From Verrucomicrobiota bacterium (GTDB taxonomy: Bacteria; Verrucomicrobiota; Verrucomicrobiia; Opitutales; Opitutaceae): 64,000 nt of DNA. How positions within the stretch are numbered: the stretch's first letter is position 1; each line of letters opens with the position of its first letter. The position numbers and the translations under genes were made by a program. Below, piece after piece: positions 21,429 through 36,605 of the stretch. The stretch covers positions 148,669 through 212,668 of the forward strand of contig JACTNC010000058.1 in NCBI GenBank assembly GCA_014584295.1, read 5' to 3'. The notes beneath the pieces were generated by a model. That model was given only the letters and a program-made list of their open reading frames with translations. It searched no databases and was not told where the DNA came from.

Positions 21429-22604
21429 TCAGTTGATCACGAGTTCGGCCTGCAAAGCGCCCGACCGCTTGAGGGTTTGAAAAATCGCCATCATCTCGCG
21501 CGTGGAAACTCCCAGGGCATTCAGCGCGGAAGCGAGCCGCTCGATTGACGGCGCCTCGTTCACCACACTGAAACTCCCCTTGTGTTCCTCCACATCCGTC
21601 TGCGTGCTCGGCACAACCGTCGTCTGTCCGGAGTTGTTGAACGAGTTTGGCTGGGAAACACCGACATTGGACGCGACGGTGATCGTCAGGGATCCAAGGC
21701 TGATTGCGACCTGCGAGAGGCGCACCGTGGAAGTCGCCACAATCGTGCCGGTGCGCTCGTTGATTACGACACGCGCCAGGGTGTCGGGAATCACTTCAAT
21801 CTGCCCGAGATCCGCCAGAAAAGCGACTTCACGTCCGCGGTAGGATTCAGGCAACTGGACAGTCACGCTCGCCGCATCGGCCGCGGAGGCGGCGCCACGG
21901 AAGACATCATTGATCGCATCGGCCATCCGCGCCGCGGAGGTAAAATCGGGATTGTGCAGCTGCAGCGATATGGATCCGTCCGTGACAAACTTTGCGGGGA
22001 TTTCACGCTCAACGATTGCTCCGTTGCTGATGAGGCCGACCGTGGGATGATTCTTTTGGACGGTTGCGCCACCCGCACCTCCTGTCCCGCCGAGGAAGCC
22101 CCCAACGGCCACCGCACCCTGGGCGACGGCGTAGACACGTCCGTCCGCACCGAGCAGCGGTGTCTGCAGAAGCACGCCGCCCTGAAGCGTCTTGGCGTCG
22201 CCCATCGAGGCAACAGTGACGTCGATGCGCGATCCATTCTTCAGGAACGCTCCGATGTCAGCGGTCACCATGACTGCGGCAACGTTCTTTGCCTTGATTT
22301 GATTGGAATCGACCGTGATCCCAAAACGCTGCAGCGAATTGCCCACCGCTTTGAGTGTGCCCTGGGAATTGGAATCACCGTCTCCCGCGAGACCCACCAC
22401 CAGGCCGTAGCCGACCAGTTGGTTCTCACGGCCGCCGCCCACGAGCGTCAGGTCCTTGACGCGCGAGGCGCTCAGCGGCGCTGCTGCCAAAAAGAACATC
22501 AGTATCGTCAGACCGCCAAACGGCACTCCAACCCTGGAGGGGCACGCTTCGTCGTGCCCTGCCTTGCGTGATCCGGTATCCCGCGAAAAGATTCTGCGGG
22601 CCAT
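21429..22604 (-). CDS. flgI: flagellar P-ring protein
   Basis: RVKDLTLVGGGRENQLVGYGLVVGLAGDGD and the C-terminus ..MMAIFQTLKRSGALQAELVI are typical FlgI. The start is uncertain (ATGs at 22697, 22613 and 22604; GTG at 22526) because a 114-bp repeat lies in frame in the 5' region. Confidence 0.9.
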   Translation of the reverse strand: MARRIFSRDTGSRKAGHDEACPSRVGVPFGGLTILMFFLAAAPLSASRVKDLTLVGGGRENQLVGYGLVVGLAGDGDSNSQGTLKAVGNSLQRFGITVDSNQIKAKNVAAVMVTADIGAFLKNGSRIDVTVASMGDAKTLQGGVLLQTPLLGADGRVYAVAQGAVAVGGFLGGTGGAGGATVQKNHPTVGLISNGAIVEREIPAKFVTDGSISLQLHNPDFTSAARMADAINDVFRGAASAADAASVTVQLPESYRGREVAFLADLGQIEVIPDTLARVVINERTGTIVATSTVRLSQVAISLGSLTITVASNVGVSQPNSFNNSGQTTVVPSTQTDVEEHKGSFSVVNEAPSIERLASALNALGVSTREMMAIFQTLKRSGALQAELVIN

Positions 22605-22649
22605 TTTGATCATCGGACACCAGAAGGGCACGACGAAGCGTGCCCCTCC
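22536..22649. repeat. REPIN-like doublet A (two inverted 24-nt units, 66-nt spacer)
   Basis: GGAGGGGCACGCTTCGTCGTGCCC (22536-22559) and its exact reverse complement GGGCACGACGAAGCGTGCCCCTCC (22626-22649). Each unit is itself a hairpin (GGGCACG / CGTGCCC). Confidence 0.85.
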
Positions 22650-22707
22650 AAAGGTATGCGCAAGATGACGGAATAACGGGAAAGTCAGGAGCGACATGGA
22701 AATGGTC

Positions 22708-23325
22708 TCAATAGGGACGGAGTTTCTCGTAGAGCTTTGCCAGCCAGCCCTTTTTCTGCGCGTCGGTCAGGCTCCCCTCGTTGATGAACTCCACCTTGGC
22801 ATCGGCGATGTTGCTGGAAAATACGGTGTTCCCGCTGGAGACGTCATCCGCGCGAATGACGCCATGAAGAACCACGTGCTGGGTCTCCCCGGCTGACACA
22901 ACCCTCCGCACGCCCTGGATGACAAGGTTTCCATTCGGAAGGACATCGGTCACCATGACCGCAGCCCGCGCATTGAGGCTCTGAGTGTTATTCACTTCAC
23001 CACCTCCATTGAAGTCGTTTGATCCGCCCAGTTTGATCGCCGGAAGCGCTCCCTTGTGCGTGCCGAAACGGCTGATGCCAGCTGGGAACAGGAATTGCTC
23101 GACACCCGCATCCACATTCGCCGCGGAGTTCGTCTTCTTGCTCTGCGAAGACTGCGTGGCAGCAGATTCCTGAACAATGACGGTGAGAATATCACCCACG
23201 CGGGAGGCCTTGCGGTCCGAGTACATCGACCGCTCCCCGCTGCCGGGAGCCGTCCAGAGTGAGTCGGCCGAGGCCGTCAGAGCGATGACGGAGAAGAGAC
23301 CGAGGTGAATGAGTAAACGTGGCAT
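22708..23325 (-). CDS. flgH: flagellar L-ring protein
   Basis: SLWT...SMYSDRKASRVGDILTVIVQE and ..NGNLVIQG..V.. are FlgH family patterns. Has a signal/lipoprotein-like N-terminus. Confidence 0.9.
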   Translation of the reverse strand: MPRLLIHLGLFSVIALTASADSLWTAPGSGERSMYSDRKASRVGDILTVIVQESAATQSSQSKKTNSAANVDAGVEQFLFPAGISRFGTHKGALPAIKLGGSNDFNGGGEVNNTQSLNARAAVMVTDVLPNGNLVIQGVRRVVSAGETQHVVLHGVIRADDVSSGNTVFSSNIADAKVEFINEGSLTDAQKKGWLAKLYEKLRPY

Positions 23326-23334
23326 GGGAAGATC

Positions 23335-24087
23335 CTAAAAGTTCACCTGGGCACGATTCTCACCGACAACCAAGGCGGCGAATTCGCGTCGCGATTCGAT
23401 ATTACGGACACGGACGGTCTCGCCCTTTCCGCCATCCTGCATGGCAAGCGCCTTCATATTGATCTGCAGGAATCCGTCGAGCGCACTCACATCGATCACC
23501 TGGCCCTTGCGCACCAGGGCACGCCGGGAGAGGTCGCGCCAGGTCAGCAACCGGCCTGCCGGGACGGGGCGCAGATAGGACCAGTCGGTGGAGTTGATGA
23601 ACGACGCAGGGATGGCATCGCGCTCACGCAATGCATCAATGCGGCGGACATCGCACACGGCTGGATCAAAGAAATCGCCGCGATCGGCGGGAGTCTGGGC
23701 GACCCAGGCATCGCGCCAAAGCTGTGCGCGGCAGAGCACGGATTCCTCGCGCGGCAGTTGCGATCCCTCCGTGACACGCACACGAAGCAGCAGGGTTGAT
23801 GAAAGGGCTGCTGGAAATTCGATCAATCTGGCCGTCACGCCAGCATTCGCGTCGCCAGGCTTGGTCGTTACGGGCTGCCAGGGCCGGGCAAGTTCAAGCT
23901 GAAGCTCGCCCTCGGCGTTGAAGTGAGTTGTGAGCTCTTGCGCAAGCGAAGTCAGTAGTCCTGTGCGAAGCTCGGCGATCGGATCGGCGACGTTTTCGCT
24001 CTGCACCTGCGCACACGCGTCACTCGAAGCGAGTACCACACCAGCGGTCAGCAGAATGCAGCGGAAAAAGTGAGCGGGGAGTATCAT
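23335..24087 (-). CDS. flgA: flagellar P-ring assembly chaperone FlgA
   Basis: C-terminal SAF/FlgA pattern VRKGQVIDV...INMKALAMQDGGKGETVRVRN. ATG at 24085-24087 gives a signal peptide MILPAHFFRCILLTAGVVLASSDACA. The longer ORF runs into a repeat unit. Confidence 0.7.
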   Translation of the reverse strand: MILPAHFFRCILLTAGVVLASSDACAQVQSENVADPIAELRTGLLTSLAQELTTHFNAEGELQLELARPWQPVTTKPGDANAGVTARLIEFPAALSSTLLLRVRVTEGSQLPREESVLCRAQLWRDAWVAQTPADRGDFFDPAVCDVRRIDALRERDAIPASFINSTDWSYLRPVPAGRLLTWRDLSRRALVRKGQVIDVSALDGFLQINMKALAMQDGGKGETVRVRNIESRREFAALVVGENRAQVNF

Positions 24088-24121
24088 GAAATTTCGTGGG
24101 GAAGTGAGGGTGCCAACTGCA

Positions 24122-24144
24122 GTCACGACGAAGCGTGCCCCTCC
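24122..24144. repeat. solo REP-like unit
   Basis: GTCACGACGAAGCGTGCCCCTCC, between flgG and flgA. Confidence 0.8.
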
Positions 24145-24196
24145 ATTGTGCTGGGCAGGTTGTCTGGAACTCTACTTGCAGAGTGACTCATGATCA

Positions 24197-24979
24197 TCAG
24201 CGCTTCATCTGGGCGACGCTCTGGAGCATCTCGTCCGAGGTTTGGATGGACTTGCTGTTGATCTCGTAGGCGCGCTGGGCAACGATGAGGTTCACCATCT
24301 CCTCGACGATGTTGACGTTCGACATCTCGATGTACCCCTGAAGCACGTGGCCGAATCCCTGCTCGCCCGGCTGCCCCGTCTCAGGCGTACCACTCGCGCT
24401 TGTCTCCTCGAACAGATTGCCTCCGAGGCTGCGCAGCCCTGAGGGATTCGCGAACCGCGTCAGGGTGACGCGAAATGTCTGGCTCCCGGTGGCGCTTTGC
24501 ACGGTCACTTCGCCGCTCTCCGAAATGTTCACGGAAGTCGCGCCCGGAGGAATCGGCTGGAAGCCGCTGAGGATCGGCAGACCATCGTTGTTCGTAACCT
24601 GACCTGTGGGGGAGAGCTTGAATGATCCATCGCGGGTGTAGGCGATGGTCCCATCGGGACGCTGTACCTCGAAAAATCCATCGCCCTGGATCGCGACATC
24701 CAGTTTTTCACCGGTCGCGTTCACCTGTCCCTGCGTGAAGACCTTGGCCGTGGCTGCGACGCGTGAGCCGTTGCCGACCTCGACTCCTGTCGGCACAAGA
24801 TTGCCGCCGCCGGTCTCGGTGCCGACTCCTCGCGGGCGCTGGTAGAGCAGGTCCTGAAACTCGATCTTGCTGCGCTTGAAGCCGGGGGTGTTCACGTTCG
24901 CGAGGTTGTTCGCGATCGTATTGAGGTTGAGCTGCTGGGCCTCCATGCCGGTGGCGGCGCTGTAGAGTGAGAGGTTCAT
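24197..24979 (-). CDS. flgG: flagellar distal rod protein
   Basis: MNLSLYSAATGMEAQQLNLNTIANNLANVNTPGFK and the C-terminus GYIEMSNVNIVEEMVNLIVAQRAYEINSK. Confidence 0.9.
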   Translation of the reverse strand: MNLSLYSAATGMEAQQLNLNTIANNLANVNTPGFKRSKIEFQDLLYQRPRGVGTETGGGNLVPTGVEVGNGSRVAATAKVFTQGQVNATGEKLDVAIQGDGFFEVQRPDGTIAYTRDGSFKLSPTGQVTNNDGLPILSGFQPIPPGATSVNISESGEVTVQSATGSQTFRVTLTRFANPSGLRSLGGNLFEETSASGTPETGQPGEQGFGHVLQGYIEMSNVNIVEEMVNLIVAQRAYEINSKSIQTSDEMLQSVAQMKR

Positions 24980-25038
24980 GACGGATGTTCAGTTCGGGTG
25001 CAGGAGGTTGTCCTTGAAATCTGGATATGCGGGTAGAA

Positions 25039-25782
25039 TCAGCCGAGGTTCTGAAGGGTCTTGGCCATGGCATCGTCGCGGGCCTGAATCAGCTTCTGGT
25101 TGGCCTCATAGGCGCGGGCGATATTGACAAGGTCCACCATCTCCCGGAGCGGCGCAGTGTTGGCCCCCTCGAGGTAGCCTTGAAGAATCTCGGGGTGCTC
25201 CACCGGCTGCGAAGCCTGACCGCCGCTGAGAAAGACACCGGCCGACATCGGACGAAGCTGTTGGTTGTCGGCAAATTTCACTACGCTCAGGCGGCCGAGT
25301 TGTGTGTTGTTCTGTACAATGGAGCCATCGGCGTTGATCACGACCGGGCCACCGCCAGGCAGCAATTGAATGGGGGTACCCGCATCGCTCAGGATCGGGA
25401 CATCCTGTGACGTGACCAGCGTGCGATCCGGGCGGATTCGAAGCTCGCCAGCACGCGTGTAGCCGCGCTGCCCATCCTCAAGCTGGACTTCGAAGAAACC
25501 TTCGCTCTGCAGGGCAACATCCAGTTCGCGCCGCGTCGGCTGTGTTTCGCCCATTGCAAAATTGATCCCATACGCCGCACGCGGGAAGTACATCGGCATC
25601 CCGCGATTGTCCCCGACCTTCCCATCCGACCTCGCAAGTTCACCCGCAGATACCGTTGAGAAATTGACCGTGCGCTTTTTGTACCCGGAGACTTGGTTCG
25701 ATGTGATGTTCTGGGTAACAGCGTCCTGCCAGCGTTCGAGGGCAGAAAGGGACGCCGCGCTTTGGTACATGCCTACATTCAT
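25039..25782 (-). CDS. flgF: flagellar proximal rod protein
   Basis: ATG at 25780-25782 gives MNVGMYQSAASLSALERW. C-terminus GYLEGANTAPLREMVDLVNIARAYEANQK. The track start (25791) is a GTG three codons upstream. Confidence 0.85.
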   Translation of the reverse strand: MNVGMYQSAASLSALERWQDAVTQNITSNQVSGYKKRTVNFSTVSAGELARSDGKVGDNRGMPMYFPRAAYGINFAMGETQPTRRELDVALQSEGFFEVQLEDGQRGYTRAGELRIRPDRTLVTSQDVPILSDAGTPIQLLPGGGPVVINADGSIVQNNTQLGRLSVVKFADNQQLRPMSAGVFLSGGQASQPVEHPEILQGYLEGANTAPLREMVDLVNIARAYEANQKLIQARDDAMAKTLQNLG

Positions 25783-25797
25783 GGGTGGCACCCAGTA

Positions 25798-25813
25798 AGC
25801 AGCAGGAGTGCCA
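25798..25813 (-). promoter_or_regulatory. sigma54-type promoter upstream of flgF
   Basis: The minus strand reads TGGCACTCCTGCTGCT. The -12 C (25799) is 17 nt from the flgF ATG (25782). Confidence 0.6.
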
Positions 25814-25887
25814 GAACCGTAACTTATTGCATGGCCGATTTTTGTAAAACATTCCTAGTATATCAAGGATCGGGAAATGCTGGGAAG

Positions 25888-25902
25888 CGGCAGGTTTTGC
25901 CG
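25888..25902. promoter_or_regulatory. palindromic upstream element, flgF
   Basis: CGGCAGGTTTTGCCG. Its centre is 83 bp upstream of the -24 GG of the flgF promoter. Confidence 0.55.
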
Positions 25903-25964
25903 GGGGCAACCCAATGGCAGGCGACATGCGCGGATTGGCACATAGTATCAATCTTCTCTCACCG

Positions 25965-26130
25965 GGAGGGGCACGCTTCGTCGTGACCTGTATTGGATCG
26001 ACGCGTAGGGGGTGCTTCGAGCTCCGACTTTGATTGCAGCGGACCAATCGATCTCGAATCGGATTTCGATCCTTGGGACCTGGAACGTGCCGCTACTTTT
26101 CGATCCGGGCACGACGAAGCGTGCCCCTCC
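25965..26130. repeat. 166-bp MITE/REPIN-like element B
   Basis: Terminal inverted units at 25965-25988 and 26107-26130. The structured interior (..GACCAATCGATCTCGAATCGGATTTCGATCC..GGGACCTGGAACGTGCC..) is shared with element C. Confidence 0.85.
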
Positions 26131-26198
26131 AGGTCGCGATCAGAACCAACCACCCATCCTCAAACCCGGGTATACTTCGATCCCGTCCTGCCAATCGG

Positions 26199-26453
26199 TC
26201 AGCCTGCGGCTGGATAGAGGCACTCCACTTCGATCTTTTCACCGCAGGTGCACGTGATGAGCAGGCGCACCACCTTGTCCCCTTGCTTGATGCACTCGAT
26301 ATTGGGACCGTGCTTGTGGTCGGACCCGGATGACTTCAAGCCGGGCTGCGAGGCGAGAGAAGGTATTCCGGCAAGGCCGGTATCGGTTCCCTCTACAGTT
26401 GGGCGAAGCGCGGGCGTGCCGCTCGAAGGTCTTCCGCTGAGAAAGGGTTTCAT
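26199..26453 (-). CDS. hypothetical 84-aa protein translationally coupled to motB
   Basis: ATG at 26451-26453 overlaps the motB TGA (26450-26452) as ATGA. Cys-containing C-terminus IECIKQGDKVVRLLITCTCGEKIEVEC. No family recognised. Confidence 0.45.
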   Translation of the reverse strand: MKPFLSGRPSSGTPALRPTVEGTDTGLAGIPSLASQPGLKSSGSDHKHGPNIECIKQGDKVVRLLITCTCGEKIEVECLYPAAG

Positions 26454-27232
26454 GGAGTGAGAGTCGCTACGGGCTGCGCTTGCGGGCGGTTTTCACGTTT
26501 CAACACGGAAAGGCTGATCGTGACACGCTGGTTTGTTTCAGATTCCGGCGGCTCCAGAGGCATCGGCCGGGTGTCTGAAAACCCGGTTACCCGCGCTATC
26601 AATCCCGGGTCAACCGCGTAATAGGTCAGGCTGCGCCGCGCGGCGTTTGCCCGGTCCGCCGACAGTTCCCACGCCGTGTAATCCGGCTTCTTGAGTTCGA
26701 GCCCCTTGCGCGTGTGCCCTTCAATCACCACGGAAAATTTGTGCCGGTCGATCATCCACGCGAGGTTCTGCATGATGAACCGGCCCCACTCCGTGAACTC
26801 GGCGGTATTCTCGACGAAGAGCGGTTTGCGCGCACGATCGAAAAGCGAGATGCGCAGCCCGTCACTTGTCACCTGGATGTCAATGGGCTTGTCCTTCAAA
26901 TCCTGATCCATGTGGAGCAGCCGATAGAAGTCCTTGGCGAGTGAGTTGAGAAACTGGAGATCGACCGTGCGCGGGTCTGTCTGAGGTTCGCCACCCTTGG
27001 TGGCATCATCCGTTTTCCCCGAACTCGATTCGGACTTTGTCGCTGTCTTGCCGTCGAGATTGAGGACACCTGCGCTCGCAGTGAGCGGCGACTTGAACGG
27101 CTGCTGGAAATAGCGGGAGGTGGCCACAAGCACCTCCTTGTCCTGGGAGCAGATCCACAGCACCATAAACAAGGCCATCATCGCGGTGACGAAGTCCGCA
27201 TAGGCCACTTTCCATGCACCTCCTTTTGCCAT
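26450..27232 (-). CDS. motB: flagellar motor stator protein MotB (OmpA-like)
   Basis: N-terminus GAWKVAYADFVTAMMALFMVLW (plug/TM with conserved Asp) and an OmpA-like C-terminus VIEGHTR...SADRANAARRSL. Confidence 0.85.
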   Translation of the reverse strand: MAKGGAWKVAYADFVTAMMALFMVLWICSQDKEVLVATSRYFQQPFKSPLTASAGVLNLDGKTATKSESSSGKTDDATKGGEPQTDPRTVDLQFLNSLAKDFYRLLHMDQDLKDKPIDIQVTSDGLRISLFDRARKPLFVENTAEFTEWGRFIMQNLAWMIDRHKFSVVIEGHTRKGLELKKPDYTAWELSADRANAARRSLTYYAVDPGLIARVTGFSDTRPMPLEPPESETNQRVTISLSVLKRENRPQAQPVATLTP

Positions 27233-27258
27233 GATCGTATGGGTGATAGGCCTGCCAA

Positions 27259-28122
27259 CTACCGGCCTGCAGGCATTCCCTTGAGTGTGGTTTCCATTTC
27301 CTCGCCGCCAGGCTGGACAGAGCTGTCAAGCGAACGCCGGGCGATCTCGACCGCGGTGAGCGGCGCCAGCCCCTTCGCAAAACTTGAGACGGCCACAAGA
27401 ATGCAGCGCAGGTACTGACCGTCGCTCTGATTCATGAACCGGATGCGGTTCGAGAGCGGCAGCACAAAACCATATGCCACAAAAATTCCTAACAGCGTGC
27501 CAGTGAGCGCAGCGGCAACCTTTTCACCCACGGCCTCGGGTCCGTCGGCAATCGCGCTCATCGTGTTGATGATGCCCAGCACCGCTGCGACAATTCCGAT
27601 CGCGGGGAGGGAGTCGCCGACCATCTGGAGTACGTGCACAGGATGATCGCTCTCCTCGGCCTTGGCGTTCATTTCCGCCGACATGAGCTCCTCGAGCTGG
27701 TCGGGTTTGATCTTACCGTCGATCACCGGCTTGATTCCATTGACCAGAAATTCCATGCGCTCCTTGTTTGCGGTGATGGAGGGATACTTTTTGAATATCG
27801 CACTTTGTGACGGATTCATCACGTGCTCCTCCAATGCAATGAGGCCGTTCCGGCGGCCAACCATGAAGATCTCGTAAAGCATCTTCAGAAGATCGAAGTA
27901 CTCCGTCTTGCCCACACCCTTACCGAAGGCGGCAAGTTTGATCTTGTGGATCATCTCCTTGATGACATTGGCCGGACTCGCAATCACAAGCACACCCATG
28001 CCAACCCCGAGAATCACAACGAACTCCGATACATGCAGCAGCACCAGCGGATTGCCGCCCGCAAGCATGAAACCGCCCAGTGTCGAGGCGACAACGATGA
28101 AACTGCCGATTAAAATGAGCAT
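27259..28122 (-). CDS. motA: flagellar motor stator protein MotA
   Basis: Four-TM MotA/TolQ/ExbB pattern, with C-terminal LPAIGIVAAVLGIINTM...ALTGTLLGIFVAYG. ATG at 28120-28122. Confidence 0.9.
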   Translation of the reverse strand: MLILIGSFIVVASTLGGFMLAGGNPLVLLHVSEFVVILGVGMGVLVIASPANVIKEMIHKIKLAAFGKGVGKTEYFDLLKMLYEIFMVGRRNGLIALEEHVMNPSQSAIFKKYPSITANKERMEFLVNGIKPVIDGKIKPDQLEELMSAEMNAKAEESDHPVHVLQMVGDSLPAIGIVAAVLGIINTMSAIADGPEAVGEKVAAALTGTLLGIFVAYGFVLPLSNRIRFMNQSDGQYLRCILVAVSSFAKGLAPLTAVEIARRSLDSSVQPGGEEMETTLKGMPAGR

Positions 28123-28136
28123 GTATCTGGGTGAGG

Positions 28137-28164
28137 TTAACGGCCCGATGGGGAGGACTCTTTA
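28137..28164 (-). promoter_or_regulatory. sigma28 (FliA)-type promoter upstream of motA
   Basis: The minus strand reads TAAA-GAGTCCTCCCCATCGG-GCCGTTAA (TAAA-N16-GCCGTTAA against the consensus TAAA-N15-GCCGATAA). The -10 ends 14 nt before the motA ATG (28122). Confidence 0.6.
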
Positions 28165-28373
28165 GTGAGGCATGGGAATCACCCCTCGAAACGCGGATTT
28201 CGTTCCCTCGGAAGAAGGCAAAAAAAGTCCTCAAGTTTTCGGAGTATCGTTCCCAAACACCCCAGGACATTCCCCAACTCCGGCAAGCCCCGCAACCAAG
28301 GCTACCGCATCAATCGCAGACCAAAGGCCATGCAGGCGCCTTCCTTCCGCGGGATCCCATCGGATCCACGCGC

Positions 28374-29162: not shown

Positions 29163-29213
29163 TGGGGGCTGGATTTCAGGATGTGGATTGAGTGTGGAAA
29201 TTGAATGGACTCA

Positions 29214-29489
29214 TCAGCGCGTCTTCGCGGGCGCGGCCGCTGCGACGGGCACTGCCTTTTCCGCTGCTTGGGCCTCTGCCTCGGCGCTTGCGGCAATGCG
29301 GTTCAATGCGATGGCCTCGCCAAAAACCTTGATCACGACCGACCAGAACCAGCGGAAGAGCAGGGCGCCCGCCAGACAGCCGATTGCGGCATCGCGAAGG
29401 ACGAGATCAGGGGCGCGATCGGCAAGGAATCCCGCGGCGGCGGTGAGGGAGAATCCGGCGAACCCGCCGGTGAGAAAAATGAATTTCAT
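29214..29489 (-). CDS. hypothetical small membrane protein (91 aa) at the position usually occupied by flhG
   Basis: ATG start. Two hydrophobic helices (FIFLTGGFAGFSLTAAAGFL; IGCLAGALLFRWFWSVVI) and an Ala/Glu-rich tail. Lies 12 nt after flhF. Confidence 0.5.
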   Translation of the reverse strand: MKFIFLTGGFAGFSLTAAAGFLADRAPDLVLRDAAIGCLAGALLFRWFWSVVIKVFGEAIALNRIAASAEAEAQAAEKAVPVAAAAPAKTR

Positions 29490-29501
29490 GATGTGCGTGA
29501 A

Positions 29502-30623
29502 TCAGGATCCGGGTAGTGTCTTGCGAAGGACGGCATTGATCGCGTCCGTCTCGATATCGCCCGTCAGGCTCGGCCCGGTTGCGAGAAACAGGGGCGTCAC
29601 GTCGCCATCGACGAGGAAGTCGAGGAGTCTTCCCCAATGCCCAAGTTCGTCGAGATGCGTGAAGACGAGATGCGTCGCACCCGCGGAGCGGCCCGCATTG
29701 TACGCAGCGCGCAGGCTGGCGAGATCGTGCAGCGCGTTCAGGACGAGCACTCTTCCATCGATGCGTTCGGTATCCAGAAAGCGAACGATGCTGGCATTGG
29801 CCGCGGCTTGCAGCGAAAGAGCCGGAAGATCCACGAGAACGAAGTCCTCTGCCGAGGCATCCTCGATCCTACGCACGCCGGGTTCTCCTGGTATGTAGTG
29901 TTCCAGCGTCAGGCCGACCGCCTCACAAAAAACTGAAAGTCCTTCGGTCAGATTGGGTCGGTCAAACTCTGCCTTGATCACCCTGCCCTTGCGTCCACGA
30001 ACGAAAACGGACTGGGAAAGCCATTTGGAAAGCGCGGTGGTTCGACCCGAGCCCGCAGTGCCCATGAAGGCCGCGCGCAACGGGAACGCACGTGCTGCCC
30101 TCGAAGCGGATCCCGATCGCAACGCCTGCCCAAAGTCGGCAAGTGCACGATAGAGCGGAGCATCCGCACCAAGACTCGGCAGGGTCTGGAATCGCGAGAC
30201 AAGCGCCTCGGAGAAGCCAGAGCGCCTAAGCAGATCCGGGAGCCGCGGAGCGGATTCCGCCACACGCGCCGGCGTCTCGGAATTCAATCGCTCACGAACG
30301 GGTTGTTCGTGAGCACCACGCTCCGCCGTCGCTCCAGCTTCAAGCGTCCCCGGAACCGGTGCATTCTCGACGGAGCGTCCGGAAATCGCGACCGTCTCCT
30401 CGGCTTCTCCGGAATCGAGCTGTGCAATCACCTCCAGGCGCGGACGCCCAAAAAGGCCGGAGAGCCCCTGACCCGGAAGCTGCCGCACGGAAAGAACCTT
30501 TGCTTTCTCTCCCAGTTGCGTGCGAATCGCCTGAACCGCCTCTTCCGCAGACCGCACGACGAGCTTGTAGATCGCATTGGCCGGGGAACGATTTTCAGCG
30601 GTGGCGAAAGCGGAGGGGGACAT
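29502..30623 (-). CDS. flhF: flagellar biosynthesis protein FlhF (SRP-type GTPase fold, degenerate motifs)
   Basis: N-terminus YKLVVRSAEEAVQAIRTQLGEKAKVLSV and a C-terminal NG-like domain, located after flhA. The G boxes read GTAGSGRTT, VLVDLPALS and FTHLDEL instead of GxxGxGKT, DTAG and TKLDE. Confidence 0.75.
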   Translation of the reverse strand: MSPSAFATAENRSPANAIYKLVVRSAEEAVQAIRTQLGEKAKVLSVRQLPGQGLSGLFGRPRLEVIAQLDSGEAEETVAISGRSVENAPVPGTLEAGATAERGAHEQPVRERLNSETPARVAESAPRLPDLLRRSGFSEALVSRFQTLPSLGADAPLYRALADFGQALRSGSASRAARAFPLRAAFMGTAGSGRTTALSKWLSQSVFVRGRKGRVIKAEFDRPNLTEGLSVFCEAVGLTLEHYIPGEPGVRRIEDASAEDFVLVDLPALSLQAAANASIVRFLDTERIDGRVLVLNALHDLASLRAAYNAGRSAGATHLVFTHLDELGHWGRLLDFLVDGDVTPLFLATGPSLTGDIETDAINAVLRKTLPGS

Positions 30624-30637
30624 TCGGCATCGCCTGA

Positions 30638-30653
30638 TGCTAGGCTCGTGCCA
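30638..30653 (-). promoter_or_regulatory. sigma54-type promoter upstream of flhF
   Basis: The minus strand reads TGGCACGAGCCTAGCA. The -12 C (30639) is 16 nt from the flhF ATG (30623). Confidence 0.6.
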
Positions 30654-30759
30654 ACGAAATCATGTGTATCGTATAATACTGTTTATTCGTGAGTTAAACA
30701 ATTTTATCTAGGGCTCATTACCTAGATACGCCGGTCTGAGATGGCACCTGATTGTCCAG

Positions 30760-30774
30760 CGGCAGAAATTGCCG
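30760..30774. promoter_or_regulatory. palindromic upstream element, flhF
   Basis: CGGCAGAAATTGCCG. Its centre is 115 bp upstream of the -24 GG of the flhF promoter. Confidence 0.55.
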
Positions 30775-30925
30775 GAAAACATTGCCTGATACCCATTATC
30801 GGCCGAATCCGCAGCGGACTTCACTCCAATCCTATGAAGGTCCATCTGCAGATTGGAGTATGGACGCAGATTTCAGAGACAATCCACTCAGTCCGAGCAG
30901 GGTGGATCACGATCCTCCGTCACCG

Positions 30926-31092
30926 GGAGGGGCCCGCTTCGTCGTGACCGGATTGGTATCGAAATGTGGCTGGAGCTTCCAGCTCCCGATCTTGATCCGA
31001 GCAGACCAATCGATCTCAAATCGGATTTCGATCCACGGGACCTGGAAGGTCCCGCTACCAGCCAAACCGGTCACGACGATGCGTGACCCTCC
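30926..31092. repeat. 167-bp MITE/REPIN-like element C
   Basis: Terminal units at 30926-30949 (GGAGGGGCCCGCTTCGTCGTGACC) and 31069-31092. The interior has hairpins GGAGCTTCCAGCTCC and GGGACCTGGAAGGTCCC and aligns with element B. Confidence 0.85.
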
Positions 31093-31130
31093 AATGACAC
31101 GAGCAGATTCAAGCGCGAGAGACCAAATCC

Positions 31131-33344
31131 CTACGCTGCGCGAAGTGCAGGTGCTGCTGCCTCAAGCCGAGCGACGAGGTGCGGAGGAATCGTCACGATC
31201 GCCGTGTTCTCAATCTCCGTGCTCGGCGGCAGTTCCTGAAATGCCAGAACAACAAGTCTCGGGAATGACGGTTCAAAGAAGCGTTTCAACGCAAGTCTGA
31301 GCTCGGTGCTCACAACAAGAACCGGAGTCAGGTTCTGCTGCGTGAACTCCGCCACACGTGCGTTCACCTCGGTCAGCAGATGTCGGCCAAGCATCGGATC
31401 CAGGGCAAGGCCCACTTCACTCGGCGTGCGATGGATGCGTGCAATCAGCACCTGCTCGAGTCGCGGATCAAACGTCGCTGCCTTGAGCAAGCCCGGGCGG
31501 TATTCCAGCTCAGGCACAAAATAGAGCCCAAGGCGGCGGCGTGCGAGTTCGCTGAGATCGTCCGGGTTCTTCGTGACGCTCGCGAAATCGCCGATGCACT
31601 CGAGGATGAGCGGCAGATTGAGAATCGAGAGATTTTCCCGCAGTAGGTTCTGCAGCACGCGCTGGATGATTCCGAGATTGACGAGGTCCGGCAGCAGCTC
31701 CGAAACCAGCGCGGGGTGCGATTCCTTGAGATGATCGATCAGCGTCTGCACGTCCTGCCGGCCTAGGAGGAGATGGGCGACACTCTTCAGCGTTTCCGAC
31801 ACATGCGTGATCATCACCGACGACGGATCCACGACGGTATAGCCGTTGAGCTCTGCCGTCTTTCGCTCGGTCTCGTCGATCCACACGGCCTCAAGGCCGA
31901 ACACCGGCTCGCGCGTGGGCAGGCCGCGAAGCGCAACCGTGCTGTTGGAAACATTCATGGCCATGCTGCGGCCGGGTTGAACCTGCCCCTTGGCCACCGT
32001 CTTCCCACGCAGGAGGAAGCGGTACTCATTTGCCTCGAGTTCGAGGTTGTCGCGCACCGATACGGGCGGAACAAGTATGCCCTTTTCGCGCGCGAGTGTC
32101 TTGCGCACGCCGGTTACGCGCGACAGGAGATCCCCTCCCTGCTTGGCATCGGCCAGCGGAAGCAAGCCGTATCCAATCTCGATCGCAAACACATCGAGGT
32201 CCACAAGCTTACGAAGATCCTCGGAAATCGCGCCTTTGCCGGAGGACGAAGCGCCTTCCTTTCCACCGGCGGCCGACTTGCCGGACCCAGCGGCTTTGGC
32301 CGTCACCGCGGCAATCTCCGCCGAGGCCTCGTCGACACGCTGCTGCTGCTTGAGAATGCGGGCAATGTATCCTCCGACAAGCGCCAGGCTCAGGAACGGC
32401 AGTGCGGGCATGCCAGGCATCAGGCCAAACACTCCCAGCATCGCCGCCGAAATTCCGATGGCGCGGGGATACCGGACCAGTTGTCCCCCGATCTGCTGTC
32501 CGAGGTTTCCAGTGCCTGCCGCACGCGTTACCAAAATGCCCGCGCCAACCGAAACGATGAGCGCCGGAATCTGCGAAACCAGGCCGTCACCGATCGACAA
32601 CAGCGTGAATTTCGTCGCGGCCTCCGAAAGCGTCATGTCCATCTGCAGCACGCCAATCGCGAAACCGCCGATGACGTTGACGAGCGTGATAAGGATGCCA
32701 GCAATTGCGTCGCCTCGAACAAACTTGGAGGCACCATCCATCGCACCGTAGAAATCAGCTTCCTTCTGGACCTTTTGGCGTCGGGCGGTGGCGGTGGCCT
32801 CGTCAATGATGCCCGCGTTGAGTTCGGCATCGATCGCCATTTGCTTGCCGGGCAGGGCGTCCAGCGTAAAACGCGCGCTCACCTCCGCTATGCGGCCAGC
32901 ACCCTTCGTGATGACCACGAAATTGATGACGACGAGAATGAGGAAAACCACAAAACCTACGATGTAGTTGCCCTGGATGACAAAGTGACCAAACGACTCG
33001 ATCACATGGCCCGCCTCGCCCTTGGTGAGAATCAGCCGCGTCGAGCAGATGTTGAGCGCGAGGCGGAAGAGCGTTAGCGCAAGCAGCAGGGTGGGAAATC
33101 CGGCAAATTCGGGCGGATCCTTCACGTAGATCACGATCAGCAGCATCAGCAGCGAAACCCCCATCTGGAGCGCGAGCATGACATCCAGCGCCAGTGCCGG
33201 CAGCGGCACCAGGAGCATGAGCACCGTCATGAAAAGCGCTCCCGTAAAGATCAGGTCGGCGCGCTTGAGCAGATCGACACGCGCCCCCTTCGCGGGCAGT
33301 GACTGAGGAACGACAGAGGGATCGGTTGCAGCAGCGGAAGCCAT
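31131..33344 (-). CDS. flhA: flagellar type III export gate protein FlhA
   Basis: 737 aa. FHIPEP-type region FVRGDAIAGILITLVNVIGGF and a typical cytoplasmic domain. Confidence 0.95.
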   Translation of the reverse strand: MASAAATDPSVVPQSLPAKGARVDLLKRADLIFTGALFMTVLMLLVPLPALALDVMLALQMGVSLLMLLIVIYVKDPPEFAGFPTLLLALTLFRLALNICSTRLILTKGEAGHVIESFGHFVIQGNYIVGFVVFLILVVINFVVITKGAGRIAEVSARFTLDALPGKQMAIDAELNAGIIDEATATARRQKVQKEADFYGAMDGASKFVRGDAIAGILITLVNVIGGFAIGVLQMDMTLSEAATKFTLLSIGDGLVSQIPALIVSVGAGILVTRAAGTGNLGQQIGGQLVRYPRAIGISAAMLGVFGLMPGMPALPFLSLALVGGYIARILKQQQRVDEASAEIAAVTAKAAGSGKSAAGGKEGASSSGKGAISEDLRKLVDLDVFAIEIGYGLLPLADAKQGGDLLSRVTGVRKTLAREKGILVPPVSVRDNLELEANEYRFLLRGKTVAKGQVQPGRSMAMNVSNSTVALRGLPTREPVFGLEAVWIDETERKTAELNGYTVVDPSSVMITHVSETLKSVAHLLLGRQDVQTLIDHLKESHPALVSELLPDLVNLGIIQRVLQNLLRENLSILNLPLILECIGDFASVTKNPDDLSELARRRLGLYFVPELEYRPGLLKAATFDPRLEQVLIARIHRTPSEVGLALDPMLGRHLLTEVNARVAEFTQQNLTPVLVVSTELRLALKRFFEPSFPRLVVLAFQELPPSTEIENTAIVTIPPHLVARLEAAAPALRAA

Positions 33345-33380
33345 GGGAAATTCGACGAGTGAGAAATTCAGCGATCAGAT

Positions 33381-34505
33381 TCAGGCGACGCCTCGCAGCG
33401 CCTGACTTTCAGCAGCGGTTCGGCGCATCTTCAGTTCGTGGAAGTACAGGCGGTGGGTCTTGTACACGAACGCAAGGATGCCTGCGACCGCCTGATAGAG
33501 CTCGTTGGGAATCGGCTGCCCCACGATCCCCATGCTGAAGAGCATACGCGCCACCGGCCGGTTTTCGACCATGGGCACCCCGTGTTCGGCCGCGAGAGCC
33601 TTGATGCGCATCGCAAACCGGTTGTCGCCCTTCGCGAGCACAATGGGAGCATTGTCCTTGCCGCGCTCATACTTCAGCGCGACCGCATAGTGGGTGGGAT
33701 TCGTGACCACGACGTCCGCCGTCGCGACGGCGCTGAGCATCTGTTTCTGCATCAGGCGTCGTCCCATGCGACGCATGGCACTCTTGGTGTTTGCGTCGCC
33801 TTCCGACTGCTTGTGCTCATCCTTCACCTCTTGCCGCGTCATGCGCATCTCCTTGAAGGTCTTGAATCGCTCGTATGAATAGCTGAGTGCAGCGATGATA
33901 CCTAGGGCAACGAGCAGTTTGCCGAAGAACTCAACGGTGGCTCGATGTAAGAAGCCCCCGAGGTAGGCGCTTTCGACGGGAGCGCTGAACAACGGATCCG
34001 CGAGCAGGTTCTTAGCTGCCATCCAGAGGACGAAGCCAATGCCCAGCATCTTCAGAAAATCGATCAGGCCATGCACCGCCGTGGTTTTTGAAAACAGGCG
34101 CTGAAGCCCCTGCACCACATCAAGCCGCTCCATCTTGAAGCCAAGAGCCTTGGGCGAAATCCGAAAACCGGTCTGGAAACCACCGGCGAGCAAGGTGGCC
34201 GTTGTCGTTGCCAGCAACACGGGCAGGAGCACGCGTGCAATGACGAGCCCGACTTCGTCCATCTGCCCGGGGAGCGTCGCGATTTCCAAACGCGCCGCGC
34301 CAAGGTCCCGCCAGAACAAGGTCGCGAGTGCTGCGACCTCATGCATGCCACCGGAAAGGCTCATCGAAAAAATCCCCAATGCCGCGGCCAGCATCGCAAC
34401 GACCTGAAGCTCGGGCGTCTTGGCGAACTGGCCGCGATCCATCGCGTCCGCTTTCCGCTTGTCTGTCGGCAGCTCGGTTTTTGAGTCGTCGTCGTGTTCA
34501 GCCAT
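33381..34505 (-). CDS. flhB: flagellar export switch protein FlhB
   Basis: N-terminus MAEHDDDSKTELPTDKRKADAMDRGQFAK and an NPTH autocleavage motif in VVVTNPTHYAVAL. Confidence 0.95.
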   Translation of the reverse strand: MAEHDDDSKTELPTDKRKADAMDRGQFAKTPELQVVAMLAAALGIFSMSLSGGMHEVAALATLFWRDLGAARLEIATLPGQMDEVGLVIARVLLPVLLATTTATLLAGGFQTGFRISPKALGFKMERLDVVQGLQRLFSKTTAVHGLIDFLKMLGIGFVLWMAAKNLLADPLFSAPVESAYLGGFLHRATVEFFGKLLVALGIIAALSYSYERFKTFKEMRMTRQEVKDEHKQSEGDANTKSAMRRMGRRLMQKQMLSAVATADVVVTNPTHYAVALKYERGKDNAPIVLAKGDNRFAMRIKALAAEHGVPMVENRPVARMLFSMGIVGQPIPNELYQAVAGILAFVYKTHRLYFHELKMRRTAAESQALRGVA

Positions 34506-34522
34506 GGCCTCCCGTCGGGGAA

Positions 34523-34538
34523 TGCAAGGACAGTGCCA
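34523..34538 (-). promoter_or_regulatory. sigma54-type promoter upstream of flhB
   Basis: The minus strand reads TGGCACTGTCCTTGCA (perfect consensus). The -12 C (34524) is 19 nt from the flhB ATG (34505). Confidence 0.7.
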
Positions 34539-34611
34539 CGATGCACGGGTGTTATGTGTCTATTATGCTATCAACATCTTACGAGATTCTCATCGGATAC
34601 AAAACGGCACC

Positions 34612-34626
34612 CGGCAAAATCTGCAG
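34612..34626. promoter_or_regulatory. palindromic upstream element, flhB
   Basis: CGGCAAAATCTGCAG (one arm mismatch). Its centre is 82 bp upstream of the -24 GG of the flhB promoter. Confidence 0.45.
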
Positions 34627-34658
34627 TATCCGCTATCGGGCGTTCAGGAAATGCAGCC

Positions 34659-34752
34659 GGAGCTTCCAGCTCCCGCTCTCGTCCCCGTCAGACCGGCCGA
34701 TTTCAAACCGAATTTCGATCGTCGCACAGCCAATTGACATTGTTCCCAACCT
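34659..34752. repeat. partial copy of the B/C-type element interior
   Basis: Starts with GGAGCTTCCAGCTCCCG, identical to element C, followed by a diverged ..CCGATTTCAAACCGAATTTCGATCG.. Lacks a left terminal unit. Confidence 0.5.
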
Positions 34753-35009
34753 GGACGGGCAAGCATCGTCGTGCCCGGGATCGCTCCGCGCATTCCAACG
34801 CCAGCAAATTCGCCAATTCATCGGAATCGTGTTCTCTTGTAACAATGCCCCGGAGTAAAATCCTGGACACATCCCAGACCAAACCGGGCACGACGAAGCG
34901 TGCCCCTCCAAATTCACAGGAAGATCAATCTTCTCCTCAGCAAGTGCGCAGATTCCCAATCCATCTGATCCGCAGATTTCGCGGACGGACGCAGATTCTG
35001 GCATCGATC
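34753..35009. repeat. left about 257-bp direct repeat (second-type REPIN of 157 bp plus about 100-bp tail) flanking the TA cassette
   Basis: Units at 34753-34776 (degenerate GGACGGGCAAGCATCGTCGTGCCC) and 34886-34909. The tail AAATTCACAGGAAGATCAATCTTCTCCTCAGCA..GGCATCGATC is nearly identical to 36297-36395. Confidence 0.8.
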
Positions 35010-35024
35010 AGAGTCAAACTGTGG

Positions 35025-35191
35025 TCATGTCTTACGCTTTAACCGAGTCAGCAAATCCTCGTCTGCATCGCTCAGCAATCGGCGCCTCACCACTTCGGCT
35101 TGCTTGCTGACACGTGTCCGCGAGGTCATGTCCAACGCTTTGGCAATGCCCCCAGTTGCTCATAGGAAACTGTGCTTGCTCTCTTCATCAT
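35025..35191 (-). pseudogene. frameshifted small helix-turn-helix ORF (about 55 aa if repaired)
   Basis: The minus strand reads ATGATGAAGAGAGCAAGCACAGTTTCCTATGAGCAACTGGGGG.. (MMKRASTVSYEQLG). After a G5 run (C5 on the plus strand, 35149-35153) it continues in another frame as IAKALDMTSRTRVSKQAEVVRRRLLSDADEDLLTRLKRKT*. The 167-nt span needs +1 nt to be in frame. Confidence 0.3.
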
Positions 35192-35242
35192 CAAGTCAAT
35201 CGATAAGACCTGACGCTACGGATGGCCCTCCAATCCCGCGCT

Positions 35243-35668
35243 TTATTCGATCCTATCCAAAACCAGCCGAAAACGGCGCGAACCATGGCGCCGGTAAGTC
35301 CGGAAGCCACGCTCATCCAGCGTCAGAATTTTATCCAGGCCGGTTTCCTCAGCAAGCAACACCAATGTGGCATCGGCAAAGTCCATCGGCGTGTCTGTAT
35401 ATTTACCCATCAGTCGGGCGGCCGCGCGAAGTTGCTCCGGGGCAAAGCAATCCCGAATGACAATCTGGGCGTCATCGAGAAACTCCACCAATACCTCTGC
35501 GCCCCTCGCCTGCCCGCCGATGAAATGCATGGCTTCGGTCACCACAGCTCCCGTGGTCAGCAAGGTTCCGGAAAATGCGGACAAGACCCTGGCACAACGT
35601 TCATGCTGAGGGTCGCCCCGGTTAAGGGCCGCCACCAAGGGGCCGGTATCGAGCAACCAAGAAGTCAC
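35243..35668 (-). CDS. vapC: PIN-domain toxin (VapC-like)
   Basis: PIN acidic residues in WLLDTGPL, VVTEAMHF, MDFADATL and ILTLDERGF. GTG at 35666-35668 overlaps the antitoxin TGA (35665-35667) as GTGA. An alternative ATG at 35704 would overlap by 40 nt. Confidence 0.75.
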   Translation of the reverse strand: MTSWLLDTGPLVAALNRGDPQHERCARVLSAFSGTLLTTGAVVTEAMHFIGGQARGAEVLVEFLDDAQIVIRDCFAPEQLRAAARLMGKYTDTPMDFADATLVLLAEETGLDKILTLDERGFRTYRRHGSRRFRLVLDRIE

Positions 35669-35925
35669 GACCGGGTGTTCATCCGCAGCAGGTGCTCCCG
35701 CCATGGATCCTTGCCTTGGGGCACCGGTGAAAAATCAAGGCGACCCAAGTGGCGTCCGGCCCGCTCGCCCACTGTACCCGGTCGCAGCAGCTGCCCGGCA
35801 ATCAACTCACGCACCAGTTCGGATTCGGTCCGTCCCGAGGCGGCTGCACGCGCACGCAACGCCTTCCGATGGGCTGCCGGCAAACGAATGGTGAGTGTTT
35901 CGGACATGTCGGAAACGTTATCCAT
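35665..35925 (-). CDS. vapB: ribbon-helix-helix (CopG/RHH) antitoxin (VapB-like)
   Basis: RHH pattern ETLTIRLPAAHRKALRARAAASGRTESELVRELI. Candidate ATG starts at 35925 or 35907; the track ORF extends to 36051. Confidence 0.65.
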   Translation of the reverse strand: MDNVSDMSETLTIRLPAAHRKALRARAAASGRTESELVRELIAGQLLRPGTVGERAGRHLGRLDFSPVPQGKDPWREHLLRMNTRS

Positions 35926-36134
35926 CGTAAGACACTCCGCAAGACATAATGGTTCTCGCAACAGCTCCCGGGGTATTTGCCCAAGACATGCCCTGCCAAG
36001 AGAAGTCCGATCGATCTCTCCTTCGCGTCTTCTCGGCTTCGCGTGAGTCATTCACGCTCATGCTTGGCGATGGCAAGATGGGTTCACATGAAGTCACGAA
36101 GACACGAAGGGCTGATGAAATACCGGACAGCTGA

Positions 36135-36395
36135 GGAGGGGCACGCTTCGTCGTGACCGGGATCGCTCAGCGTACTTCAACGCCAGCAAATTCGCCCATT
36201 CATCGACCTCGTGTTCCCTTGTGACAATGCCCCTGCCCTGAATAGGATCCTGGCCGCATCCCAAACCGATCTGGGCACGACGACGCGTGCCCCTCCAAAT
36301 TCACAGGAAGATCAATCTTCTCCTCAGCAGGTGCGCAGATTCCCAATCCATCTGATCCGCAGATTTCGGGACGGACGCAGATTCCGGCATCGATC
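36135..36395. repeat. right about 261-bp direct repeat (second-type REPIN plus tail)
   Basis: Units at 36135-36158 and 36273-36296. By eye, the tail differs from the left copy at only a few positions. The interior GGGATCGCTCAGCG..CAACGCCAGCAAATTCGCC.. aligns with the left copy. Confidence 0.8.
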
Positions 36396-36544
36396 CGCCT
36401 GGAGCCAATCTGCGTAAATCGGAGCCATCTGCGGATTTTATCTTCCGAGATGCTTTGCATTCTTCTATCTGGGCACAACGAAAGGGATCCGTACTGGGCT
36501 CAAGAAACATCGTAAGGCTTACAAGTCGGCGTTGGTCGAAATTG

Positions 36545-36605
36545 GGAGCTGGAAGCTCCCGCTACGCTCTGACGCCAAGCCGGGCACGACGAAGCGTGCC
36601 CCTCC
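36545..36605. repeat. partial element (inner hairpin plus one terminal unit)
   Basis: GGAGCTGGAAGCTCCC (36545-36560), then GGGCACGACGAAGCGTGCCCCTCC (36582-36605). Confidence 0.7.

Follow-up and report, generated by a model that had tools for sequence, protein, structure and literature searches.

Introduction

Repetitive extragenic palindromic (REP) sequences, their inverted doublets (REPINs, REP doublets forming hairpins) and the REP-associated tyrosine transposases (RAYTs) make up systems, termed REPtrons, which are known in E. coli, Pseudomonas and Stenotrophomonas (Nunvar 2010; Bertels & Rainey 2011, PMC3116915; structure 4ER8). Tagged REPs have been sorted into a GTAG and a CGTC superfamily, Opitutus terrae being GTAG-rich (Di Nocera, De Gregorio & Rocco 2013, PMC3733652), and the tetranucleotide GGAG has 0 occurrences in that paper. 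The present work deals with a 24-nt hairpin repeat tagged by GGAG (GGAGGGGCACGCTTCGTCGTGCCC, the unit in what follows), found in 12 copies within the flagellar gene cluster of a 64-kb stretch of DNA (the window, positions 148669-212668 of contig C5) from an Opitutaceae genome. These 12 copies probably belong to a clade-specific family of REP/REPIN/BIME type (BIME, bacterial interspersed mosaic element), most likely mobilised by a RAYT of its own; such genes, bona fide to judge by their sequence, are present in two sister species (G009 and G010).

The family has much in common with the REPtrons: a short tagged hairpin in about 100-200 intergenic copies, inverted doublets folding as long hairpins, the lack of target duplication, a clade-restricted distribution that fits vertical descent, and a small HUH/Y1 gene between repeats, here in sister species. 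It differs from them in its tag (GGAG, not GTAG), in a transposase motif (FWDTEIR where E. coli has FWEHAIR), in the long (46-330 nt) asymmetric interiors built of other repeat modules, and in that the RAYT lies outside the assembly of the source genome. With the GTAG and CGTC REPs (PMC3733652) it shares an unpaired tetranucleotide tag followed by a stem-loop, the predominance of one inverted-dimer form (here with the tags outward), clustering and occasional intragenic in-frame copies, and the Opitutaceae were already known as REP-rich; its 7-bp GC-rich stem with a 6-nt loop, however, has no match among the CGTC families described in that paper.

Other repeat systems are also comparable. In E. 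coli BIMEs and the BOX elements of Streptococcus pneumoniae, as here, the order in which units and other conserved motifs are assembled varies, and so does the number of units per locus between strains, although the modules themselves are others. The Correia elements of Neisseria (Correia repeat enclosed elements, CREE, or Neisseria miniature insertion sequences, NEMIS) resemble the doublets in length (100-170 bp), in their inverted ends of ~25 nt and in their location beside or inside operons. The long double-stranded transcript stem of such elements is of the type cut by RNase III. Insertion of a Correia element duplicates its TA target, and no RAYT is known for these elements, whereas the family described here shows no duplication and is RAYT-linked. 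Finally, the doublet between flgH and flgI, with 38 codons in a frame that is open in four genome versions, recalls the Rickettsia palindromic elements (RPE) and the intragenic REPs of Opitutus, with the difference that the flgI doublet is only possibly translated, given the alternative of a downstream GTG start.

REP/RAYT systems have been described mainly for the GTAG-tagged repeats of Proteobacteria, and a literature search retrieved no paper joining Opitutaceae with REPs, or RAYT with GGAG. A GGAG-tagged family with its own RAYT is documented here in an uncultured Opitutaceae clade, with phyletic steps of 0, ~10 and >100 copies.

Genomes and searches

The source genome (G000) is a 4.07-Mb assembly of 63 contigs with 59% G+C; C followed by a number denotes a contig, and L followed by a number a compared locus (L110 in G008; L136, a metagenome contig). 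It was compared with congeners (among them G003, G004 and G007-G011), including the metagenome-assembled genomes (MAGs) KLAP136 (G008) and Go_SlAct_bin_81 (G010), and 27 other genera were also scanned. Units were searched at <=3 mismatches in the window, with 100 dinucleotide-preserving shuffles as control, at <=4 mismatches in the whole of G000, and at <=2 mismatches across genomes. Genes were called with a simple codon-usage caller (3167 genes, 89% coding), which recovered the flagellar genes. RAYTs were sought with the NCBIfam profile NF047646 (REP_Tyr_transpos), at its curated cut-off of 80 bits.

Anatomy of the unit and of its arrangements

The unit consists of the GGAG tag followed by GGGCACG, a 6-nt loop and CGTGCCC, which pair as a 7-bp stem of -11.8 kcal/mol as RNA and -8.2 as DNA. 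The tag is GGAG in 157 of the 177 copies counted in the genome and GTAG in only 1. Two main variants exist, a CCC-ending one with a perfect stem and an ACC-ending one with a G.A mismatch (64/177 copies), while in 11 units the stem is restored in a compensated form, GGTCACG/CGTGACC. Among 91 distinct variants from G000 and its relatives, four of the seven stem pairs change on both sides; double-change cells number 19, where the shuffles gave 5.6 +/- 1.8 and reached 19 in 0/500 cases. The hairpin is under constraint. A preference for heterodimers of the ACC and CCC variants was considered and discarded, the counts being, by estimate, no different from random pairing.

Units are found as singletons, as REPIN-like inverted doublets, as head-to-tail arrays (repeating every 155-157 or 93 nt) and as BIME-like mosaics with other short repeat modules. 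The doublets are 94-375 bp long, with near-perfect 24-nt inverted ends and asymmetric interiors of 46-330 nt; when single-stranded, they close via a unit-unit stem of 21-25 bp, with energies of -62 to -85 kcal/mol. The RNA folding suggested beforehand gave long hairpins for the two window doublets of 166 and 157 bp (-85.3 kcal/mol, z = -8.2, and -81.4 kcal/mol, z = -6.7, respectively). The interiors are built from six other repeat modules, present in 9-74 copies each, of which 74-96% lie <=400 nt from a unit. A CRISPR-like reading of the arrays with a 93-nt period was rejected, as their 'spacers' recur at other loci. Direct flank repeats of >=3 nt, as a target-site duplication would leave, were seen in 0 of 44 doublets, and conserved sequence often reaches past the edge of the unit. 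What is conserved is the unit and not a fixed 'element with ends'.

In the window, the 12 units all lie within 22536-36605, exactly where the preliminary description had placed them, and none was obtained in the shuffles; no further unit is found elsewhere in the 64 kb, even at <=4 mismatches. They form five inverted (+,-) doublets and two singletons, which bears out the pairing noticed at first. The three interior types then recognised are likewise real: that of the 114-bp doublet, which has no second copy in the genome, that of the 166- and 167-bp doublets (80% alike) and that of the 157- and 162-bp doublets (80% alike), each of the last two being followed by a tail of ~100 nt.

Distribution in the source genome

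The unit had been presented as confined to the flagellar cluster. This holds within the window, and the cluster is a true hot spot, but the confinement itself is a window artefact, because the genome-wide count, set beforehand as a test, gave 177 copies (44 of them exact) at ~100 sites, well beyond local duplication. The flagellar stretch comprises 7 sites in 14 kb against 0.35 expected (P ~9e-8 per window, ~3e-5 when corrected for all windows). Other dense spots are short contigs with polysaccharide biosynthesis genes (a Wzc-like protein, glycosyltransferases and a UDP-sugar dehydrogenase, with translations judged by eye), where multi-unit mosaics stand between blocks of 1-3 genes. The densest clusters are those of contigs C33, C47, C11, C12, C45 and C39, with up to 14 units in 13.9 kb. 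A similar unit-dense stretch was observed in the sister species G009 (C1:299-342 kb).

Although 89% of the genome is coding, 168 of the 177 units are intergenic, with densities per kb of spacer of 0.40 between co-directional, 0.59 between convergent and 0.08 between divergent genes. Of the sites, 47 are singletons and 29 simple '+-' doublets, and others are arrays of the kind '+--', '+---' or '+++'. Pairs are strongly oriented, 44 being (+,-), with the tags outward, against 5 (-,+), while singletons show no bias relative to transcription (13 against 13). Moreover, 31 of the 177 units adjoin contig ends, so that the family breaks the assembly, and the fragmentation of MAG assemblies by REP repeats is of practical concern here, as the RAYT locus itself seems to fall in a gap of G000. 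No Rfam family matched the unit, and no exact copy was present in the viral contig collection searched.

The clade and its RAYT

At <=2 mismatches, the units number 159 in G000, 130 in G008, 176 in G009, 115 in G010, 10 in G004 and 7 in G011, and there are none in eight further congeners or in the 27 other genera. FlhA identity to G000 is 99% for G008, 97% for G010, 94% for G009, 91% for G011 and 88% for G004, whereas no unit-free congener exceeds 85%. The expansion of the family hence took place within one young clade. The architecture of the dimers also varies: '+-' pairs with interiors of ~100-130 nt in G000, G008 and G010; '-+' dimers with a conserved 28-nt spacer in the flagellar region of G009; and tight dimers with 15-16-nt spacers, in both orientations, in the MAG SRP272421_co2_287.

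The proposal that REP/REPIN/BIME-like elements are mobilised by a RAYT gained support from genes scoring above the profile cut-off and lying between the same units in two sister species. In G010, contig C126 carries a 186-aa open reading frame (ORF; locus positions 1462-2022, minus strand; 97 bits) with a unit 71 nt past its stop codon and an exact one 59 nt upstream of its start; eight units lie in 3.4 kb there. In G009, a 165-aa ORF of contig C3 (locus positions 1429-1926; 89.5 bits) has a unit 70 nt upstream and, 47 nt downstream, a 4-mismatch unit with compensated stem changes; as the tags of both point outward, the gene is itself the interior of a doublet. The locus is syntenic between the two genomes. 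Furthermore, RAYT fragments (60-70% identical) lie ~270 nt from a doublet on contig C321 of G004. The proteins contain the motifs PDHIH (HUH), WNYIRGNPVRKGLV and YIxxNPxxxG, and their sole relative in the PDB is E. coli TnpA-REP (4ER8), whose FWEHAIR aligns to their FWDTEIR. RAYTs at least 50% identical occur only in the unit-bearing G010, G009, G011 and G004, whereas the unit-free congeners have proteins of at most 38% identity or none.

It is likely that G000 also has this gene, at a locus lying in an assembly gap. The RAYT has one neighbour in common in G009 and G010, and the G000 orthologue of this gene (93% identical) terminates at C16:21663; a unit comes next, at 21856, and the contig breaks off at 22057, in the middle of the very doublet that directly precedes the RAYT in G010. 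The orthologue of the other G010 neighbour opens C29, with a unit at 154 in front of it. Both contig breaks thus lie within clusters of units. Since the smallest contig of the assembly is 2.8 kb, a unique island of ~0.6 kb between repeats would have been lost.

Turnover at orthologous junctions

Polymorphism between strains and species, which had also been set as a test in advance, was found as both presence/absence and structural differences at orthologous junctions. At the flgH-flgI junction, G000 and G008 share a doublet, where G009 has a single unit and G011, G004, G007 and G003 have none; the flgA-flgG junction has one unit in G000, two direct units around an 84-nt module in G008, and none in G009 and G011. 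At the same position between flgF and orf84, the interior is of the 166 type in G000 and of a 156 type in G008. A search for empty G000 sites matching units of sister genomes mapped few flanks.

Cassette insertion is seen as well. The flhB-fliR spacer, of 111-312 nt in G011, G004, G007 and G003, extends to 2.2 kb in G000, where it holds five units and where a vapBC pair and a Y1-gene remnant are accommodated between two direct copies (~260 bp) of tail plus doublet; the vapBC pair is absent from this junction in these four congeners and in G009. In G008, the flhF-flhA element is split by an insert of ~900 bp (L110:9640-10560) with a DUF6883/DUF4926 gene pair, bounded by 45-nt direct repeats of a module. 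Two distinct two-gene cassettes are thus observed within flagellar REP mosaics, each flanked by direct module repeats.

At flgH-flgI, the 66-nt interior is reversed in G008 relative to G000, at the same site, and a metagenome contig (WBZL01036433.1) whose flank matches that of G008 at 96.5% identity over 1.9 kb has nevertheless the G000 orientation. Each of the two units has retained the polymorphisms that mark it at positions 9 and 14, which places the exchange point at the edge of the units or within their innermost ~10 nt. This interior being unique in the genome, no paralogue could have served as donor. Flipped and unflipped interiors are 72-79% alike, so either the inversion is not recent or the interior evolves fast. 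The clade therefore offers a natural series for the growth of a REP population and the reshaping of operon junctions, in which gain and loss, collapse to single units, interior swaps, in-place inversion and cassette insertion have all been captured.

Proposed mechanism and competing explanations

The E. coli TnpA-REP protein is reportedly an HUH/Y1 enzyme that works on single-stranded REP hairpins and reads their tag. In the mechanism favoured here, the clade RAYT would act in trans on single-stranded hairpins, reading tag and stem, cutting and rejoining without target duplication, and would in this way be the spreader of the units. Such an action on hairpins would explain why the stem covaries and the tag is invariant, why no target is duplicated, why units cluster near units and why the family expanded clade-wise. 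Recombination between dispersed units would then lead to deletions and collapse to singletons, to interior swaps, to the flip and also to the gain of cassettes. Structurally, the family shows every feature by which REPs, REPINs and BIMEs are recognised except the GTAG tag.

Several points speak against this interpretation. The tag is GGAG, whereas the RAYT-linked REP superfamily described so far is defined by GTAG. The clade RAYT was not found in the assemblies of G000 or G008, and the gene may have been lost in that lineage. Units are 92.5% identical at shared sites, against 81.8% for non-coding flanks, a comparison inflated because the sites were picked by the presence of units. No sign of a very recent burst is apparent from the sequences, since the interiors of doublet copies are 72-90% alike, and the stem carries the G.A mismatch in 64 of the 177 units.

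The better conservation of units than of flanks, inflated as it is by the choice of sites, would suit a host-selected cis element, that is, a protein- or RNase-binding site, transcript-end signal or insulator at operon boundaries, spread by local duplication or recombination only. Such an origin is also suggested by the enrichment of units after genes and their depletion in divergent promoter spacers, by the stem covariation and by the location at flagellar operon junctions. It is nevertheless unlikely as the whole explanation, given that copy number passes from 0 to >100 within one genus, that sites are gained and lost between close species, that singletons lack any orientation bias, that no U-tract for intrinsic termination is present and that units flank the RAYT; a cis role is, in any case, compatible with REPs, which are often co-opted. 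The second origin named in the preliminary description, miniature inverted-repeat transposable elements (MITEs) of Correia/NEMIS type, would take the units for the terminal inverted repeats of elements derived by deletion from an insertion sequence (IS) of DDE type and moved by cut-and-paste with target duplication. The doublets, with their near-perfect inverted ends, their dispersed intergenic location and transcripts that would form long stems like those of Correia elements, do have the look of MITEs. No target-site duplication accompanies them, however, while singletons, head-to-tail arrays and, in other species, tail-to-tail dimers are unlike the termini of one element, conservation often extends beyond the unit, and it is a RAYT and not a DDE gene that lies between units in sister species. 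No parent IS appeared among the long-spaced unit pairs checked, in a survey that was not exhaustive, and the pair inspected in detail (C18) proved to be a split element containing an ORF of 92 aa and no IS. The MITE origin is not supported and is considered highly improbable.

The reversed flgH-flgI interior, with outer unit polymorphisms in place and an interior unique in the genome, raises the question of invertons, in which the doublets would be switches flipped by a site-specific recombinase for flagellar or surface-polysaccharide phase variation, and the hot spots at flagellar and polysaccharide loci would agree with this. Of five orthologous doublets that share their interior, however, a single one is flipped, and with interiors that have diverged as described the event is probably not recent; many elements stand between convergent genes, where a promoter switch would be senseless, and a 66-nt spacer is short for recombinase synapsis. 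No serine recombinase was found in four unit-rich genomes, and the tyrosine recombinases of G008 and G010 are XerC/D-like only, plus one fragment each, with none specific to the clade. The flip is therefore read as recombination or template switching between inverted units and not as a dedicated switch, and invertons are judged very unlikely. The same enzymes bear on the idea that the doublets are landing pads, recombination sites comparable to attC or to clusters of attC sites lacking integron integrases (CALIN) that admit small gene cassettes, since no integron integrase was found beside these XerC/D-like proteins and fragments. The vapBC pair, the DUF6883/DUF4926 pair and the separation of polysaccharide gene blocks by unit clusters all recall cassette insertion; yet there are two cases only, each unit is a hairpin, unlike the R and L boxes of attC, and the pattern is accounted for as well by homologous recombination between dispersed repeats. 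Landing pads therefore receive hardly any weight beside a REP family spread by a RAYT.

Possible effects and significance

Doublets within operons (flgH-flgI, flhA-flhF) or at operon ends would plausibly form RNA stems of ~24 bp. Effects of such stems at the RNA level are shown for the REPs of E. coli and the Correia elements of Neisseria, and by analogy effects on flagellar mRNA are plausible. The preliminary description had named mRNA 3'-end stabilisation and insulation as possible roles. Once transcribed, the doublets would stand as stable stem-loops at flagellar operon junctions, possibly as RNase III or exonuclease barriers; as no U-tract is seen at the elements when the sequence is read directly, they are not intrinsic terminators.

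The finding is ordinary in principle, with some instructive details, and for flagellar biology it remains ordinary unless RNA-level or inversion effects prove real. A bolder conception, in which the doublets are active recombination modules, with in-place flips, interior exchange and capture of toxin-antitoxin cassettes at flagellar and surface-polysaccharide loci, the flgI doublet a translated invertible segment giving alternative N-termini of this flagellar ring protein, and the GGAG tag with the 'FWDTEIR' RAYT clade the mark of a third REP tag superfamily involved in surface-structure variation, is something of a long shot.

Elements and genes of the window

The flagellar genes, identified by Pfam, follow the order flgK, flgN, flgJ-like, flgI, flgH, flgA, flgG, flgF, motB, motA, fliA, flhF, flhA, flhB, fliR, fliQ, fliP and fliO on the minus strand. 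The elements occupy flgH-flgI, flgG-flgA, the motB operon end to flgF, flhA-flhF and three sites between fliR and flhB (Table 1), in agreement with the early placement at operon boundaries and inside the flgG-flgA and flgH-flgI junctions. The earlier statement that the window holds no transposase was nearly right, the exception being a deleted Y1 (IS200-like) remnant.

Table 1. Repeat elements and associated features in the window (window coordinates; ORF, open reading frame; RHH, ribbon-helix-helix)
Feature	Position	Strand	Location	Remarks
REP doublet, 114 bp	22536-22649; units 22536-22559 (+), 22626-22649 (-)		flgH-flgI gap, within long flgI ORF	66-nt interior
Single REP unit	24121-24144	-	between flgG stop and flgA start	
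REP doublet, 166 bp	25965-26130		motB-orf84 operon end to flgF promoter region	
REP doublet, 167 bp	30926-31092		between flhA and flhF	type shared with 166-bp element
166/167-type interior module without units	34648-34720		upstream of flhB	GGAGCTTCCAGCTCC hairpin; 78% to 30961-31033
REP doublet, 157 bp	34753-34909		fliR-flhB region	
Tail module, ~100 nt	34910-35015		attached to 157-bp doublet	itself a dispersed repeat
Y1 (IS200-like) gene remnant, internally deleted	~35030-35230	-		left end, last ~55 codons and right end kept; intact form ~330 aa
vapBC-type toxin-antitoxin pair (RHH antitoxin, PIN toxin)	35243-35925	-	between two direct copies of tail + doublet	
REP doublet, 162 bp	36135-36296			second copy of 157 type
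Tail module, second copy	36297-36400			97% identical to 34910-35015
Single REP unit (36582-36605) with adjoining GGGAGCTGGAAGCTCCC hairpin module	36544-36605	-	just downstream of fliR	

The 114-bp doublet corresponds to exactly 38 codons, in frame in the signal-peptide region of flgI (22526-22697). Without it, the ORF reads MSLLTFPLFRHLAHTF-RVGVPFGGLTILMFFLAAAPLSA followed by SRVKDL, which resembles the uninterrupted FlgI N-termini of G011, G004, G007 and G003, and the frame is open in four versions: G000, G008 (with the flipped interior), the metagenome contig L136 and G009 (with a single unit). Candidate starts are ATG 22697, an internal ATG and GTG 22526; REP units can mislead start-codon calls, as for flgI and flgA. 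In the same cluster, the FlhF-like protein (29502-30623) gave a weak match to the SRP54 GTPase domain (24.2 bits).

Other Y1 genes

A scan with Pfam PF01797 (Y1_Tnp) missed the relevant RAYT and returned other Y1 genes only. One of these, a family of ~330-aa proteins with an N-terminal Y1_Tnp domain, has a full copy in G000 at C41:146660-147628, where, as in G008, a two-gene block is enclosed by units; units also lie near the G009 orthologue. It was ruled out as the mobiliser, because its paralogues are common in unit-free genomes and the true RAYT had been found. The ends of these genes are conserved (GGTCAGGTCTTAC ... GTAAGACxTGACC, with TTTGAC after each; G000 C41:146605-147640), and two internally deleted remnants lie right beside REP units (window 35030-35230; L037:400-600), that of L037 between direct repeats of unit plus flank. 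Possibly, the family represents an IS-like element inserting next to REPs.

An IS200-like Y1 gene of 146 aa, present in a single copy at G000 C62:125740-126640, lies between type I restriction-modification genes (flanking translations judged by eye) and has counterparts in G008, G009, G010 and G011. It is flanked by two direct repeats of ~110 nt, each with a GTAG-tagged hairpin, GTAGCCGGGGGT...ACCCCCGG. As a mobiliser of the GGAG units it was discarded, the hairpins at its flanks being its own and present in two copies only in the genome.

Two further RAYT-like sequences are located on the contig of the window. The gene at C5:108834-109217 (PNHYHAL, YVHHNPVHHG) scored 75 bits with NF047646, just below the cut-off, and no GGAG unit occurs within 1.5 kb of it. 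Some 15-20 kb upstream of the window, a 1606-aa frame (C5:129168-133988), by eye a large restriction-modification-type enzyme, holds an in-frame RAYT-like Y1 domain with RNLPHW, PNHVHLL, FWQDESFDHIVRS and YIADNPAKA (Pfam 41 bits, NF047646 69 bits), and a seemingly orthologous arrangement is found in a 799-aa frame of G009 (C10:41001-41258).

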